In this document: in pieces, positions 14,104 through 44,922 of the stretch | Layout of the letters: every line of letters begins with the position of its first letter | How positions within the stretch are numbered: position 1 is the first letter of the stretch | NCBI GenBank assembly: GCA_965214775.1 | Contig: OZ243974.1 | Location: forward strand, 2,592,001-2,656,000 | Direction of reading: 5' to 3' | Source of the DNA: Nitrosopumilus sp. | GTDB taxonomy: Archaea > Thermoproteota > Nitrososphaeria > Nitrososphaerales > Nitrosopumilaceae | Length of the DNA: 64,000 nt | Notes under the pieces: generated by a model | Database searches by the model: none | Seen by the model: only the letters and a program-made list of their open reading frames with translations | Told to the model about the DNA's origin: nothing | Translations under genes and position numbers: made by a program

Positions 14104-14140
14104 TAGACGCTATATGAAATCTTATCTGTATCCTGTGATA
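14104..14140 (+). mobile_element. Isolated IS110 left end
   Basis: Reverse complement of 42766-42802 with one mismatch. Confidence 0.75.
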
Positions 14141-15205
14141 TGTATTATATGAAAATTATGTCGCACCATCACCAATGTCCTCCTCCATCCATCTTGGGTT
14201 GCTTTTCCTGATCGCTTCTGTGGCCTCCCTGTCGGAGAATGCCCGCAGCGGCGTCTCGTAGTTGTCGATGTCAAGCGACCAGTGCAGCCTGTCCTCGTTA
14301 TAGTAGTCGATGTATGCAGACAGACTCTTGTGGTTCCATATCTCCTCCTCGATGCTCCTGTGGAATCTCTCCAGTTTGCCATTGGTCTGCGGGTGATACG
14401 GCCTGGAGTTTATCAGCCCGATTTCGCAGTTGAGCAGCTCCTCCTCAAAGGCAGTGGGCCTCCATCCGCCCTTGGGCGGACTCTTCTTCTTCTTCGGATC
14501 CGAGCGCGCCCCGACAAAGCACTTGCCGTTGTCTGAGAGTATGGTGGCAGGCGCGCCGAACTGGGCCACGGCCTGCCGCAGGACCGCCACGACGTTTTCT
14601 GAGGTGGCCTCCCTGAACAGGCCCGCACCAGTCACGCACCTGGACGAGTCGTCTAGGAACGTGACCAAATTGAGCCCTGCAAAGCGCGGATCCTTCATGG
14701 TATGCCAGTCCACGTGCCACATGGCATTGGAGTATTTGCGCTCAAAGCGGACGTATTTTCTGGGCATTGATTTTGCAGCCGATGGCGTCACCAGCCCGTT
14801 TTCTTTCATTATCCTGTATACCTCGTAGTAGCTTATATCGAGTTGCCTTCGCAGCCTCTTGGCCGTATGAACCACCCCTGCTGCACTGTGTTTGTACTCC
14901 TCCAGGACTGCGCGCACGTCCCCGTCGGGAACCGGGGCGCTCTTTTTCCTTCCCGGCTTGAGCGGCACGTGGTGCGTGTCGCCTGTCTTCCTGAACCGGG
15001 CATACATCCGCTGGACGTGCCTTGTCGTGACGCCTATCTCCGGGGCCACCTCCGAGGGCTTTCGTCCCCCTGCACATTGCGTCACTGCGTATCTGATCTG
15101 CTTTGCCTCGAGCCTTACAACCATCGGTTTTCTTGATCGGTAAAGCCTAAAGTAATCCTTTGCAATCCTCCTCAAATTAGTGCGACCTAATTTTCGTACA
15201 ATAGA
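14141..15205 (-). mobile_element. IS481-family element; transposase probably 15124 to 14156
   Basis: 25-bp imperfect TIRs TGTATTATATGAAAATTATGTCGCA / TGCGACCTAATTTTCGTACAATAGA; HTH plus integrase core DDE (WHVDWH, SDNG, QTNGKLERF). Confidence 0.9.
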
Positions 15206-39272: not shown

Positions 39273-40181
39273 TTAGCTGTTCCCGTAAAACCCCCCCAGC
39301 ACTGCTGCGCCCAGCATACCAGACGAGTCTCCTAGTCTGTTTTGCAGTATGGGCGTAGTATTCCTGTCCCCGTAAAGCGAATGACGGCGAACACTTTCCA
39401 CCCCCTCGTCGTACAGGAACCGTATGTTGGATACCCCTCCACCGACGACTATGACATCAGGATCCAGTATCGAGATGACGCCTGCCAGTGCCGTCCCAAA
39501 ATCGTCTAGGAACTCCTCCTTCCATCTCAGGCCGTTCTCCGATTCAAGAAGGGACGGCGATGCGACGATCGCTGGGACCGTTTCGGTGCCACCTGTGATC
39601 TCCGTCCATCTGCGTTCAAGCGCAGGGCCCGATATGTACATTATGGCGCATCCCTTTCTTCCGCAGCTGCAGTCGACGCCGTTGTGGTATAATGTTGCAT
39701 GTCCCCACTCCCCTGCCAGACCCATGCGCCCGTCCTGTATCGCCCCATCTATTACTATGCCGCCTCCTACCCCCGTTCCCATTATGATGCCAAACACGGT
39801 ACGATACTGCCGCCCTGCACCCATGGTGGCCTCGGCCAACGTGAAGCAGTTTGCGTCATTTTCGACAAAAACCCTCCGTGACAGTGACTCCTCCAAGCCC
39901 TTTCTTATGTATGCGGCGTATTCAGACGAGGGAGAACCTGGCATGCCGATGCCGACGGTGGCATCACCCCCCCCCCCTCTCCGTGCCGTTTCGGCGGATT
40001 CGACGTCACCTACAAGTCTGGTGATCGTCTCCACGGTGTCATTCAAGTCGTTTTGTGGGGCAGCAACGCGTTTTCTTGACACCATGTTGTACGAGCCGTC
40101 CAGACGCACCGCCTCGATCTTGGTGCCCCCGACGTCTACGCCTATTCTCCATTGTGCATCCGTCGCTTCCTGAAGCCCCAT
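39273..40181 (-). CDS. ROK-family sugar kinase
   Basis: GVDVGGTK, ENDANCFTLAE, GTGVGGG, AGEWGH, CSCGRKGC, GGGVS. Confidence 0.92.
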   Translation of the reverse strand: MGLQEATDAQWRIGVDVGGTKIEAVRLDGSYNMVSRKRVAAPQNDLNDTVETITRLVGDVESAETARRGGGGDATVGIGMPGSPSSEYAAYIRKGLEESLSRRVFVENDANCFTLAEATMGAGRQYRTVFGIIMGTGVGGGIVIDGAIQDGRMGLAGEWGHATLYHNGVDCSCGRKGCAIMYISGPALERRWTEITGGTETVPAIVASPSLLESENGLRWKEEFLDDFGTALAGVISILDPDVIVVGGGVSNIRFLYDEGVESVRRHSLYGDRNTTPILQNRLGDSSGMLGAAVLGGFYGNS

Positions 40182-40333
40182 AAGAATACCGTATGACGGT
40201 CGTATATATAGTGACGATTGAAAGTCTCTGAGTATGTGGTCGTAGTAACTATGCGTAGTAACCAATCATAAAAAGGACAAGAAAATTTTCACCAATAGAA
40301 CTATACTGACGATCATTGAAAATTTCGCCTTCC

Positions 40334-41320
40334 TTACACGCGGCGCTCAAGATATTTGTAGATGTCAACCTTGATGGAACACGTCCTAAAGTATTCTGAG
40401 ACGGCTCTTTTGAGGTGATCTGCCGTATCGTAAAAGACAGATGTGACCAGCCTGTACTTGGCGTCCTTCCAGATTGGCTCTATGCCACTCAGCTCCGGCC
40501 TAGCTACCGGCAGGTACAGCAGGACAACGTCGGGATTTTTCTTCAGGTACCTGCGGACCCTTCCGGTCTTGTGCTGTGCTGCGTTATCCATCACAATCAG
40601 AACCTTTCCCCACTTTTTGTGCGCCTGCTTGAGATAACGCACAAAGTTTATGCTGTTGAACTTGTCGTATGTGCGCATCAGCCTGGTTCCGTCGTCTGCA
40701 ATCGTTCCGTATACCACGACACGTTCCCTCCTGCCGGATCGTTGCACCTCGATCCTGTCCCCCACTGGCGACCAGAACTTTCTGCCGTCCCTTCCCGTAC
40801 TGACGAATATCGACTCGTCCTGTACGGTTATCCTAAATCCGCGCCTTTTTGCAAGCGCAATCGTGTCTTTTGCCTCCCTTTGCCACCGTCTTACCTCCTT
40901 TGCGTCGGCAGCATTTGCCAGCTTGGTAGTTGTCGTCTTTAGCGAGAATCCCATCGTGTGCAGGATTCTTCTGATGCTTCCCACGCTGTATGTGACATGC
41001 AGCCTGCGGCGCACCCAGTTGCACAGCTTCTTCGGGGTGAGCTTTTCCATCCTGCGCAACTTTGTGGCGATCTTTTTTATCCTGCCGACTGGGACCTTTG
41101 GCTTTTTGCCCCTGTCAGGGGAGTCACGAAGGCCGTCAACGCCGTCAAGCTCGAATCTATTGATCCACATCTGTACTGTACGCTGTGTCACGTTGGCAAT
41201 CTCTGCGGTCTGTGCGGTGGTGTTGCCAAGCAGTACGGAGCGCACCGCTAGGATTCTGGTATAAACTCTGTTATCCTTTTCGACACATATGGCATCCGTG
41301 AGGATTTTCGTCTTGTCCAT
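40334..41320 (-). CDS. IS630-family transposase
   Basis: QDESIF, MDNAAQH, LPVARPELSGIE. Confidence 0.92.
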   Translation of the reverse strand: MDKTKILTDAICVEKDNRVYTRILAVRSVLLGNTTAQTAEIANVTQRTVQMWINRFELDGVDGLRDSPDRGKKPKVPVGRIKKIATKLRRMEKLTPKKLCNWVRRRLHVTYSVGSIRRILHTMGFSLKTTTTKLANAADAKEVRRWQREAKDTIALAKRRGFRITVQDESIFVSTGRDGRKFWSPVGDRIEVQRSGRRERVVVYGTIADDGTRLMRTYDKFNSINFVRYLKQAHKKWGKVLIVMDNAAQHKTGRVRRYLKKNPDVVLLYLPVARPELSGIEPIWKDAKYRLVTSVFYDTADHLKRAVSEYFRTCSIKVDIYKYLERRV

Positions 41321-42062
41321 GTCAGGAGGGCCATGGATGGAGATCTCCCATATGAAATCGTACCTAATCCTACCGTGGACCCTTGCCAGCTCGATGTTCC
41401 GAATCAGGACAATGTTGCTATGCGATGCATCCTCTTATACTTTCTCTGCGTGAGAGTCTTGTTCTGAGTGCGGTACTCTTCTCCGGTGGTCAGCATGTGC
41501 CAGATTATCTCCAGCATATGCCTTGCAACTGCAATCTTTGCCTTCTGCCATCCTCGTCTCTTTCTTATCCTTTCATGTATCGCACCAAGCCTTGGGTCGT
41601 TTCGTGCTGCGACTGTGGCCGAGTTGACAATAGCCTGGCACAGCCACACGGATCCCTGCTTTGTTATGCCGCCTCCTTTGTGTCTGTCTGCGCTGTCCCT
41701 GCGCGAGGGAGTCAGCCCTGCATACGAGACGAGCTTCTCCGGAGTGGCAAACCTCCTGATATCTGCTATCTCAGAGATTATCGTCAGTGCAGAGACATGG
41801 CTTATTCCAGGCATGGTCATAATCGTCTTGGCCCTCGGATCGCTTTCGGATACGGAGGCAATGCTGCGCTCCAGATCCTTTATCTGATCCTGTATCCTCT
41901 TGATGTCATCAAGGTACATCTTCACCGTTGCCGCGTCAATCTCTGACATCTTTATCCCGTCTTGGATGTACTGTATGGCAGAAATCGTAAACGTCTTGTG
42001 CGTGGGCAGATCATAGTCATATTTTGCAAGTATTGCGTGTATCTTGTTCTTGCACCTGGTGG

Positions 42063-42173
42063 GTAACAGGTCGGGCTCTGGAAGCTGTTCCTGATTTCAG
42101 GCACAGATTCCATTTGATCGGCATTCATTAGTGGCAAAATTCATGCCTGAACTTCCAGAACCCGACCTGTTAC
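42063..42173. mobile_element. MITE family A (111 bp)
   Basis: TIR; 8-bp TSD CCTGGTGG. Confidence 0.93.
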
Positions 42174-42636
42174 CCTGGTGGCTTCTGCTGTCTTGCCGGT
42201 TCTGGTCCTGCCCAGCATTCTGAGGTCCCTATAGTGCTTGTCAGGCACAAACGACTCTGGCAGCATGTCTGCTCTGAGCAGGTCGGCAAGTATATTTGCA
42301 TCCACGCGGTCGTCCTTTATCTTGGCGTGCGCTATCACCTTGACCTTTGCCGGATGCACCAGCACGGTGTCTATCCCGCAGTCCTCAAGCGTGTCATGTA
42401 CGATAATCCAGTAGTTGGCAGTGGATTCGCATACTGCCCTGATTGGCAGCTGTCCCGGATATGCCTTTTTGAGGTTTGTTGCAAAATTCGTTGTTGCCAA
42501 AACGCTGTTCTCAAACTTGGATCGCTCAAGCAGCTTGCCCGAGTCGTCCTTTACTGCTGCAACGCATGTCTTTTTGTGTACATCTATTCCTGCGTTGATC
42601 ATGTTATCACCTCCTTTTTGATCAAAATGCCTGATC

Positions 42637-42757
42637 CAGGCGGAATCTCCCATTCACCGTCTTCTGCGCGGTATATTGCTTTCCGCCTGCTGTTGCGAGT
42701 CAGTCTACTGAACACCCTTGTACATGGTAAGTTCCAATCGACTCTCAGGCCCAACAG
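42637..42757 (-). ncRNA. Candidate IS110 bridge/seek RNA
   Basis: Two adjacent stem-loops with internal loops upstream of the recombinase; loop sequences match the element ends. Confidence 0.6.
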
Positions 42758-42864
42758 TAATAGTATATCACAGGATACGGATAAGATTTCATATAGCGTC
42801 TACTGGGAAAACCCTGCGGAATTTTTAATCACGGTCGATTACACATAAAGTCTAATAAATAATG

Positions 42865-43152
42865 TCATGGCTCAGATATGATAGCCCATGCCAGATCACG
42901 TCCAAACTTGATTGTCACTATGTCGCCAACATCCTTTGTGCAATCTTTAATGGTTTTAGGAACGTCGTCTCTAGTCTCAACATAGCATATCCCGTCTTGA
43001 TTTGCCAAGATTACGGTTTCCTCGAAGACATCCTCGCGGATAAGATTCCAAAACGGAAAGACGGCAGTTGAAATCACGATTCCTGCTGCAAGCAGCAGTC
43101 CGCCAAATATCAGGCCCCCTTTTTGGCCGGATGTCAATTCCATGCCTACCAT
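42865..43152 (-). CDS. Small membrane-anchored hypothetical protein
   Basis: N-terminal hydrophobic helix followed by a soluble domain. Confidence 0.75.
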   Translation of the reverse strand: MVGMELTSGQKGGLIFGGLLLAAGIVISTAVFPFWNLIREDVFEETVILANQDGICYVETRDDVPKTIKDCTKDVGDIVTIKFGRDLAWAIISEP

Positions 43153-43327
43153 GTCCCCCCGTCGCCGGCATTAGGATCAAGCTTCTTTGCAGGAACGTTG
43201 CCGTGGGCTTTTTTCATATGGCGTTTCAGTCTCTCAGGATCATGCAGTTCGGTCCCACACGTGTCGCATCTGGTCTGATTTTCTTTGTCTTTGCGTTTGA
43301 ACAGGCCCATATCTTGCTAAAAATTCG

Positions 43328-43430
43328 TGCATTATATGAAAATTATGTCGCAGTAATAGCAACAGTAGCAGCATTGCAGGCTGTGGCAATGTCCTCTTCC
43401 ATCCATCATGGGTCACTTTTTTGGATCACC
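43328..43430 (-). mobile_element. IS481 right-end remnant
   Basis: ATTATATGAAAATTATGTCGCA matches the 14141 TIR; WMEED C-terminus. Confidence 0.65.
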
Positions 43431-43566
43431 TCTTTGCCCTCTGCGGGAGCTCTCCTGTCTGTACTTTTCCCTGCAGAGGCGGCAATAGCCCGCGTTCTTT
43501 CTGCTGTTGCCCATTATGATATTCAGGATCGACTGATCAGAATCGTTTTGGGTGACATGCGCCCAT

Positions 43567-43678
43567 GATCTCCCATATGAAATCGTACCCAATCCTACCG
43601 TGGATCCTTGCCAGCTCGATGTTCCGAATCAGGACGATGTTGCTATGCGATGCATCCTCTTATACTTTCTCTGCGTGA
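43567..43678 (-). mobile_element. IS110 right-end remnant
   Basis: Near-identical to 41342-41453. Confidence 0.85.
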
Positions 43679-43679
43679 T

Positions 43680-44922
43680 AGTTTGTTGCATAACCCTTCC
43701 TAAAATTTGAAATCTGACTGAAAATCACCAAAATGATCAACTAATCCTTACCGAAAAAGTAATGGATCATGAGGATGCAACATACGGTACAAGTTGATAC
43801 ATACGGACAATGCAAAGTACGTAAAGAAGTGGGGCAGGCCCGATCGTCAAGTACGACCAAGGTTGAGAGAAGGATTTCAAGGTTGCCAACCGCCACAAGG
43901 AGGGTTCCCCGTTCCTGTATGCAGACGGCTTGATAATGGCTGGCGTTGTCCTCAGGATCGCATTCATGATTCCATACAGGCAGCTGTCAAGCATGCTCGG
44001 GGAGATGCCACGGGGCACGGATTCGCCGTGCCACACCACGATATACGGAAGGATGTAGAAGCTTGACGTCGACATTGCAGAGAACATAATTACGGTGCGC
44101 GACAAGTCCGGCGACATGGTCATGATAGATGACGCCACGGGCCTCAAGCAGCACGACTGGGGCGAGTGAATACGCAAGAAATGGAAGGCAAGGCGCGGAT
44201 TCGTCAAGATGCACCTGATGGTCGACGCAGACACCAAGCAGGTGCTGGCAGTATCTGTCACAGATGAGACAGTCGGCGACAACACTGAGCTGCCTGCACT
44301 GCCTGGGGAGGCGGCCGGGAACATCAGAGAAGAGGAAGAGGAGGGCTGCTCCGATAGTGCAGATGCAGTCAAGATCCCCAACATGTTTGCAGCCGGGATC
44401 TCGCCGCTTATCCTGCTCGGCACCGGCGAGGACCAGAGTACGCCTGGCAAGATCCCACTTGCAGGCGGCGGATACTGTTCAAGGAAGAACGTAGCCGAGT
44501 GCCACAAGCGCGGTACAAGGCCATTCATACGGCTTTTGACAAGCTGCACTGCAAGGGACATGGGCGCCGGCGACAAGTAGGGCATGCTTGTCAAAAGCCA
44601 TCTCGGGGGAGGCCCAGAGGAGGCTGTGGGCGATCTATCAAAGGAGGAGAGGCAGGAGAACCTGCGGTACTGGAAGAGCACGGCTGGCTATGGTGCAAGG
44701 TGGATAGTCGAGATCGTGGTATCTGCCATAAAGCGGATGTTCGGCGAGGACGTAAAGGCCCTCAAGTGGTCCAATATAGTGCAGGAGACAAAGTTGAGGA
44801 TATGGCTGTACAACAAGTGGATCACAGAGGAGGAGGAGGAGGAGGCAGCTGCCATGTAGGAACCTAGCGCCGGTGGGGATCCTGGAGGATTGACAGCTCT
44901 AGTCGGAGTTATGCAACAAACT
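43680..44922 (+). mobile_element. IS5-family (IS903-like) element, transposase pseudogene
   Basis: 15-bp TIR AGTTTGTTGCATAAC; IDDATGLK, KMHLMVDADTKQV, GYGARWIVE split by stops and frameshifts. Confidence 0.82.

Follow-up and report, generated by a model that had tools for sequence, protein, structure and literature searches.

Background and comparison with described systems

The RNA-guided recombinases encoded by insertion sequences (ISs) of the IS110 and IS1111 groups are the closest described relatives of the element reported here. In IS621, the RNA is encoded by the left end of the element; in each loop the bottom DNA strand is paired by the 5' strand and the top DNA strand by the 3' strand, and the subterminal repeats measure 2 to 3 bp (Durrant et al. 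2024; excerpts of PMC11208160). In IS1111-type elements, the top-strand match is placed 5' of the bottom-strand match, and the non-coding region lies downstream of the gene, with exceptions such as ISMtsp17 (Siddiquee et al. 2024; excerpts of PMC11187229). Our subject is an IS110-family element on the minus strand of a Nitrosopumilus sp. genome, at positions 41345-42801 of a stretch of 64,000 nucleotides (hereafter 'the window') of contig OZ243974.1. The genome is a single contig of 2.83 Mb and encodes an archaeal AmoA (386 bits); the host is therefore an ammonia-oxidising thaumarchaeon. We consider it highly probable that the element is a non-autonomous IS110-family copy, its gene broken by a miniature inverted-repeat transposable element (MITE), whose leader encodes a bispecific guide RNA of the bridge-RNA or seekRNA type.

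The locus shares with the IS1111 elements ISEc11, ISPa11 and ISKpn4 a DEDD/serine recombinase, long subterminal repeats (10 bp here, 7 to 17 bp there) and the order of the guides, the one complementary to the top strand standing 5' of the one complementary to the bottom strand (excerpts of PMC11187229). It differs in the position of the RNA, which is upstream of the gene in all 64 loci that match our RNA model, whereas it is downstream in nearly all the IS1111 elements covered by those excerpts. Here, moreover, a second, donor-matching loop clearly belongs to the conserved RNA; the likeness to IS1111 is read from guide order and repeats. Targets in the ends of other mobile elements are a further shared trait, and a reference title reportedly ascribes such targets to IS4321 and IS5075.

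With IS621 and the IS110 group (excerpts of PMC11208160; PDB 8wt6), the shared features are an RNA in the left end, upstream of the gene, a target loop followed by a donor loop, a core dinucleotide present in all guides of both loops, a displaced or discontiguous right-donor pairing, and naturally reprogrammed guides. In contrast, both loops show the opposite guide order, the core is AG or TG instead of CT, the subterminal repeats are 10 bp long instead of 2 to 3 bp, and protein likeness reaches only E about 1e-12. ISEc21 (excerpts of PMC11187229) also has its non-coding region upstream, a protein of 358 aa (359 aa here) and a target inside other ISs, of the IS3 family in its case and in IS630-like and other IS ends in ours; its order of top- and bottom-strand matches is however the opposite, and ISEc21-type elements lack long subterminal repeats. 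In terms of group membership, repeat length and guide order are thus those of IS1111 and the upstream RNA is that of IS110, while neither a downstream RNA, nor the IS621 guide orientation, nor absent or 2- to 3-bp repeats are found. These comparisons support the placement of the element as a new archaeal member, of mixed architecture, among the known RNA-guided IS110/IS1111 recombinases.

A predicted RNA structure conserved in the leader

The leader is non-coding and 200 nt long, and contains the following features.

42603-42799, minus strand: left end with the non-coding leader, which begins with right-donor base +1 (ACGCT...) and reaches the start codon.
42690-42757, minus strand: hairpin 1, putative target-binding loop, with helices P1 (42752-42757/42690-42695), P2 (42739-42744/42697-42702) and P3 (42726-42729/42713-42716).
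42637-42689, minus strand: hairpin 2, putative donor-binding loop, with helices P4 (42681-42689/42637-42645) and P5 (42669-42673/42655-42659).
42603-42636, minus strand: third hairpin, of small size (GATCA/TGATC, 42620-42636), followed by the Shine-Dalgarno-like GGAGGTGAT (42606-42614) and by 3 nt of spacer (42603-42605).

A first-pass annotation of the window had proposed two adjacent hairpins on the minus strand. All the stems that it named are present, namely CTGTTG/CAACAG and GAGTC(G)/(U)GACTC in hairpin 1, and CAGGCGGAA/TTCCGCCTG and (T)ACCG/CGGT(G) in hairpin 2; both hairpins are also found in the centroid fold, and the helices are backed by compensatory changes. The annotation had further suggested building a covariance model of the leader from homologues. 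This model, R1, was built on 23 sequences and four helices. Four sequences with a long apical insertion were misplaced in the MAFFT alignment (A2), dropped from the seed (A3), and regained by the model. Of 80 related loci, 64 were matched by R1, with 67 matches in total, each of them just 5' of the gene and on its strand. In the host genome, R1 gave 31 matches, the one in the window covering 42634-42760 with 122 bits. Among the 16 loci devoid of a match, 5 are distant bacterial homologues, 9 correspond to gene matches truncated at the 5' side, and 2 have a replaced upstream region.

In the model alignment, 98.7% of the cells are paired, and 15 of the 20 pairs show changes on both sides (7/10 for P2 and P3, 8/10 for P4 and P5). 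Such double changes amount to 206 cells, compared to 63 in shuffled alignments and at most 8 in controls where the partner was slid. Three pairs are mostly G-U, which identifies the transcribed strand as the gene strand. The segment GGAGGTGA is also kept in related loci. Judging from this covariation, the leader very probably encodes a conserved two-loop RNA.

RNAalifold, applied to A3, missed P1 and P4. It proposed a long-range pairing (A3 columns 12-14/127-129) between a conserved CCU preceding hairpin 1 and GGG in the left-donor guide, which showed no compensatory changes and was not adopted.

Boundaries of the element

Junctions were aligned from the host genome (29 left and 14 right). Similarity among the aligned copies begins at AGACGCTATATG and stops at CATATGGGAG. 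The 4 bases preceding AG vary by subfamily (CAGT, TTAT/TTAC, AAAC, TATG/TACG), and they vary together with the hairpin-1 loop. Uninterrupted copies of a neighbouring IS630-like element read GAAGGTTTAT-AG-ATCTCCGCC at the site where the TTAT-type copies sit. AG(A) is present at both junctions and single in the empty IS630-like target, GGTTTAT-AG-ATCTCC, and we therefore take the element to be bounded by a core AG, located at 42800-42801 on the left and 41345-41346 on the right. The span of 41342-42805 originally assigned to the element has to be shortened: given the copies with other flanks and the empty sites, CAGT (42802-42805) and ATC (41342-41344) are flanking target DNA. The ends are organised as follows.

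42802-42805, minus strand: left target remnant (LT) CAGT, flanking DNA matched by the left-target guide, with empty sites found.
42800-42801, minus strand: core dinucleotide AG of the left junction, present at both junctions and once in the empty target.
42785-42794, minus strand: left subterminal inverted repeat ATATGAAATC, to which GATTTCATAT is perfectly reverse-complementary.
41350-41359, minus strand: right subterminal inverted repeat GATTTCATAT.
41345-41349, minus strand: GGG (41347-41349), the last 3 nt of the element and end of the left donor, and core AG (41345-41346).
41335-41344, minus strand: right flank ATCTCCATCC, the right half of a target that belongs to the neighbouring IS630-like element's left end.

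The 10-bp inverted repeat is perfect and lies 3 nt from the core on the right side and 5 nt on the left side. An equivalent pair of 10-bp subterminal repeats is found in the related clade with a TG core described below. There are no terminal inverted repeats at the tips, the repeats being subterminal, and no duplication beyond the core. Past the stop codon, the right end comprises only about 60 nt.

Hairpin 1 follows the target

Two strands of the hairpin-1 loop are proposed as target guides.

42705-42712, minus strand: left-target guide TTCAGTAG, 3' loop strand, same as the top strand of the left flank plus core.
42730-42736, minus strand: right-target guide TGGAACT, on the 5' strand of the loop, with AG+TTCCA of the top strand as its complement.

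Two identities reported in the first-pass annotation are found in the window: CAGTAGAC is shared by the hairpin-1 loop (42703-42710) and the left junction (42798-42805), and ATGGGAGAT by the hairpin-2 loop (42645-42653) and the right end (41343-41351). Within the window alone, ATGGGAGAT and CAGTAGAC have 4 matches, where 0.72 and 0.97 are expected, and 1 and 4 of 100 shuffles reach 4. These matches exceed chance only weakly; the weight of the argument lies in other copies and genomes. Numbers of this order, together with a single-sequence fold no stabler than that of shuffled sequences (z = -0.46, which also speaks against a structured RNA), would suit a locus where hairpins and matches are fortuitous and the element is an ordinary dead IS copy. 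This explanation is refuted by the comparative data, and we give it practically no credence.

Covariation of the loop bases with the target, a further check suggested at first pass, was analysed on the left side over 44 unique flank/loop pairs. Positions -5 to -1 agree in 185 of 220 cases, compared to a mean of 81 after shuffling, and none of 20,000 shuffles reached the observed value. An exact copy of the element's own guide 7-mer is found in the 110 nt upstream for 58 of 89 unique records (107 of 7,676 when 7-mers of other elements are used), mostly 39 nt before the model start, and 48 distinct left-target guides were counted, spread over many archaeal genomes. The regular expressions used missed the TG-core clade and two copies of the host genome; for the TG clade, alignment A4 and reading by eye were used instead.

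On the right side, intact copies have AG followed by TTCCTA, which matches the 5' strand TGGAACT, the reverse complement of core plus right flank. The mean longest match is 4.93 over 28 unique pairs, compared to 3.0 in shuffles, none of 5,000 attaining the observed value. In the Nitrososphaeraceae clade, the right match extends up to 9/9 (TGTTAAGTT), and the flank mirrors the G/C/T substitutions of the guide variants TGTTAACTT and TGTTAATTT. About 14 bp of target recognition are mapped in this way from natural covariation, and the data support hairpin 1 as the target-binding loop of an IS110-family RNA-guided recombinase. The initial reading of this hairpin as a target loop stands as far as its tracking of the flanks is concerned, but it had missed the right-target guide TGGAACT, the nature of CAGT as target, the order of the guides, reversed relative to IS621, and the discordant flanks of the window copy.

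Could these identities reside in the DNA itself, the loops being protein-binding copies of the ends or relics of nested insertions, without any functional RNA? Nested relics do exist, as elements are found inserted in DNA that codes for the left-target guide of other copies (host genome 2788363-2788481; L024:939-1013). However, the loop strands track flanking DNA situated outside the element, the helices keep pairing through the 206 double changes, and the G-U pairs would be A-C on the other strand. In addition, each loop has one strand that repeats the DNA sequence and a second one that is its complement, as expected for pairing with both DNA strands. We regard an explanation at the DNA level as very improbable.

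Hairpin 2 follows the ends of the element

Two donor guides are proposed in hairpin 2.

42647-42653, minus strand: left-donor guide ATGGGAG, 3' loop strand, same as the last 5 nt of the element plus core.
42677-42681, minus strand: right-donor guide AAGCA, after the basal stem, pairing with left-end positions +2 to +6 (CGCTA).

The left-donor strand reads ATGGA-TG in a clade whose elements end in ...TTCATGGA-TG, and ACGGG-TG in L054, which ends in ...CACGGG-TG. The real ends thus mirror the three variants ATGGG-AG, ATGGA-TG and ACGGG-TG of the loop, which answers the suggestion, made at first pass, to look for covariation with the donor. Concerning the core, 39 of 59 rows have AG in both loops and 16 have TG in both, 4 rows could not be parsed, and no discordant row was encountered. 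The TG-core clade (Nitrososphaeraceae/Bathyarchaeia) includes L053, L055, L058-L064, L067, L070, L072, L076 and L085, as well as the loci L090, L099, L034 and L054; the switch is joint, affecting both loops, the core complement of the right-target guide (CA for CT) and the real junctions. For the right-donor guide, 89 of 110 positions are paired over 22 unique pairs (shuffled mean 65.7, 0/20,000 shuffles as high), other registers giving 26 to 47. A remark of the first-pass annotation, that the second donor guide matches poorly, is accurate for the family of the window copy, where 3 bp are formed, but the covariation of this guide over 22 pairs closes the gap that this had left.

A different division of labour would make hairpin 1 the sole guide, in the manner of a seekRNA, with hairpin 2 as a scaffold or a translational element and the ends read by the protein through the 10-bp repeats. 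Long subterminal repeats are indeed present, the short seekRNA of IS1111-type elements is defined by target matches (excerpts of PMC11187229), and in the window family the right-donor guide forms just 3 bp. The left-donor strand is moreover near invariant, 37 of the 39 AG-core rows that were parsed having ATGGGAG, so that most of its match to the end could reflect shared conservation. Against this division, the core of hairpin 2 switches from AG to TG jointly with hairpin 1 and with the real ends, L054 has ACGGG-TG both in its loop and at its end, and the right-donor guide covaries in a single register. Hairpin 1 as sole guide therefore appears improbable to us, although less so than an explanation at the DNA level, and hairpin 2 is supported as the donor-binding loop. 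Overall, all four loop strands covary with DNA and the helices show compensatory changes, which supports the RNA-guided thaumarchaeal recombinase envisaged at first pass. What the sequence covariation brings out is a structured RNA with loops that fit the target, and likewise the joined ends, on both DNA strands.

Proposed mechanism

For the preferred reading, that of a bispecific guide RNA, the following scheme can be proposed. The leader RNA, transcribed from the sense strand, would fold into two internal-loop hairpins; a DEDD/serine recombinase would be supplied in trans by three intact paralogues; and strands would be exchanged at the core AG that the target has in common with the joined ends of an excised circle. 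The right end-left end (RE-LE) junction of this circle is expected to read ...CATATGGG-AG-ACGCTATATG..., and a candidate target is TTCAGTAGTTCCA. The RE-LE joint was not seen in four sequence-run contig sets, in which MITE-less forms and other copies were seen. RNA-protein binding, circular intermediate and chemistry are presumed by analogy with IS621 and ISEc11/ISEc21.

Several observations weigh against this scheme. As for the RNA, a look-up of sequencing runs for this sequence listed none made from RNA, a permissive scan of 40000-44000 with Rfam 15 gave no match in the leader, the basal helix P1 is not kept in register, and an alignment fitted by a model is biased towards the structure modelled; that the RNA is made is also presumed from IS621 and ISEc11/ISEc21. 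As for the guides, 31 of the 89 records do not match their own guide exactly and the fit is missing for several right flanks, so that decay, recombination between copies or tolerance of mismatches must be invoked to account for these misfits. The permutation controls ignore the kinship of the copies. In the window family, the right-donor pairing is limited to the central 3 bp, compared to 4 to 5 bp in relatives.

The window copy itself is part of the difficulty. Its guide agrees with the left flank, CCAGTAG, at 6 of 7 positions, while its right flank (ATCTCC; ATCTCCATCC) fits the GTGATCT guide of sister copies (TTAT type) and not its own TGGAACT. Recombination between two copies would explain such discordant flanks. 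The DNA to the left of CAGTAG is the truncated end of another repeat family of roughly 30 copies, which continues differently elsewhere. Given the misfit on the right, the 3-bp right-donor pairing and the gene broken by the MITE, this copy is very probably immobile, even though the RNA gene is intact.

Recombinase gene and intact paralogues

The gene of the window copy is in two parts.

42175-42602, minus strand: N-terminal part of the recombinase gene (DEDD/RuvC-like; PF01548, E 2.2e-25), running into the MITE.
42063-42174, minus strand: MITE of 112 bp with terminal inverted repeats, missing from three intact copies.
41404-42062, minus strand: C-terminal part of the recombinase gene (Transposase_20; PF02371, E 4.1e-21), with the conserved serine and the stop codon.

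The N-terminal part is 90% identical to residues 1-153 of an intact paralogue, and the C-terminal part 94% identical to residues 141-359. A 7-bp duplication, CCACCAG, is found on both sides of the MITE (42175-42181 and 42056-42062). The terminal inverted repeats of the MITE are about 24 bp long (GGGTAACAGGTCGGG...), and its family gives about 106 BLAST matches in the genome. The only matches to Rfam 15 were at chance level and were located either beyond the leader or in the hairpin of the MITE (mir-3151, E 0.3).

The host genome contains three uninterrupted copies of the element, each encoding 359 aa and 98 to 100% identical to one another (one of the paralogues is at 2749955-2751031), plus many fragments. 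The window copy differs from them by an insertion of 119 nt, the 112-bp MITE plus the 7-bp duplication. The length of 359 aa that had been predicted for a repaired reading frame is thus correct, but the idea that the system can be rebuilt is moot, intact paralogues being already there. The gene starts at an ATG (42602-42600) that follows the strong Shine-Dalgarno-like GGAGGTGAT, and the 359-aa reading begins there with the customary N-terminus MINVGIDVHK. A further ATG, situated inside the left-donor guide (42651-42653, minus strand), is in frame with the gene, which is why ORF finders give 376 aa for the intact copies.

An intact paralogue scores 253 bits on the NCBIfam model NF033542, 'IS110 family RNA-guided transposase' (cut-off 140), and matches the IS621 and ISCro4 chains of the PDB with E about 1e-12. 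Residues D7, E59, D98, D101, G256, P259 and S264 are invariant across 25 homologues, and S264 is aligned to the ESG serine of IS621. The two domains, the acidic tetrad and the serine of the G-x-x-P-x-x-x-x-S motif that characterise the IS110 family are all found; positions of the D7/E59/D98/D101/S264 type are presumably the catalytic residues of IS621. Homologues with 41 to 68% identity occur in Nitrosopumilaceae, Nitrososphaeraceae and Bathyarchaeia. IS110-family matches from enterobacterial plasmids are about 24% identical; in view of this value and of the E value with IS621, the protein appears similarly distant from the IS1111 and IS621 sides.

In the three intact copies (host genome 2746638, 2030280 and 2751234), GTAACCATAT stands directly to the left of CAGTAG, with unrelated DNA beyond. 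An empty-site counterpart of GTAACCATAT was sought in the host genome with CCATATCAGTAGTTCC, which gave 0 matches.

Predicted targets in the ends of resident insertion sequences

Targets were predicted by joining the two strands of hairpin 1. In the host genome, CAGTAGTTCC is found 33 times and makes up the outermost bases of three repeat families, and TATGAGTTTAC is found 15 times; TTTATAGATC is found 10 times, 8 of them in IS630-like ends, and CTTATAGATCAT 17 times, about 45 nt inside two further repeat families. All occurrences of CAGTAGTTCC, TATGAGTTTAC and CTTATAGATCAT fall in the ends of repeat families other than this one. With equal base frequencies, chance would give about 5, 1.4, 5 and 0.3 occurrences for the four targets, the sites being repeats and not independent events. 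According to these predictions, the loop variants designate sequences located in IS ends, with a different resident IS for each variant. For the AAAC-type guides, the predicted targets occur only 2 and 1 times in the host genome, and no such family was found there.

The IS630-like neighbour belongs to these recipients.

40334-41320, minus strand: neighbouring IS630-like transposase gene, 328 aa, with DDE_3 and HTH domains.

Its left end bears the target of the TTAT-type copies, and uninterrupted ends, GGTTTATAGATCTCC, occur at other places of the genome.

Significance and relation to earlier work

A wider proposition is that Nitrososphaeria and some Bathyarchaeia carry a bridge-type lineage of their own, with guide order and repeats like IS1111, a two-loop RNA in the 5' untranslated region as in IS110, a target loop retargeted at least four times onto the ends of resident ISs, and mini-elements of about 490 bp, made of RNA plus ends, which would depend on three intact recombinase genes. 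The arguments for and against this proposition seem to us evenly balanced. If it is true, these organisms harbour a natural multiplexed system of guides acting in trans. Independently of this proposition, the present case would extend RNA-guided recombination, so far demonstrated only for bacterial elements, to a well-defined archaeal clade, in which the traits that separate IS110 from IS1111, namely guide order, subterminal repeats and RNA position, are seen to be recombined. In a single genome, guides retargeted to various other IS elements form a natural series. The intact genes, in an ammonia oxidiser of a cultivable type, are a native candidate for programmable insertion; to our knowledge, these organisms still have no genetic tools.

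The principle is not new, since the NCBI family model already names an RNA-guided transposase and bridge-RNA mining that includes archaeal genomes has been published. Vaysset et al. list 662 archaeal IS110 recombinases, whose RNAs are not described in the available passages of that work, and bridge RNAs were mined across bacterial and archaeal intergenic regions in a preprint of 2026 (COMPASS; excerpts). No paper linking bridge RNAs to archaea with Nitroso- names was found in a literature search, from which supplementary tables were left out; likewise, 'IS110' is absent from the main text, taken without its supplementary tables, of a survey of thaumarchaeal mobile genetic elements (PMC6563490).

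Other copies and fragments

Five deletion derivatives of 486 to 496 bp are present in the host genome (2831288-2831783, 2726218-2726713, 2784512-2785007, 181541-182026 and 807929-808421). They hold the whole guide RNA, the gene start and the right end, and score 117 to 123 bits on the RNA model. In this genome, three intact recombinase genes stand beside the 31 RNA-model matches.

The copies lodged inside the left-target-guide DNA of another copy, mentioned above for the host genome and L024, have a junction that reads ...guide-AG followed by the element, and fit poorly on their right side. As such insertions were found in two genomes, guide-coding DNA itself seems to have been used as a target.

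Two further remnants of the family are found in the window: a solo right end (43567-43681, minus strand), followed by AG and then ATCATGGGCG, a target of the ATGATCT guide type, and a left-end fragment of 38 nt (14104-14141, plus strand). Outside the host genome, full RNA matches of 114 to 130 bits were also encountered on contigs labelled as bacterial: L023, L039, L065 (a Poribacteria metagenome-assembled genome, MAG) and L037 (a Dehalococcoidia MAG). L037 and L039 closely resemble the Cenarchaeum locus (L038), and these contigs could result from binning errors in sponge metagenomes or from transfer between domains.

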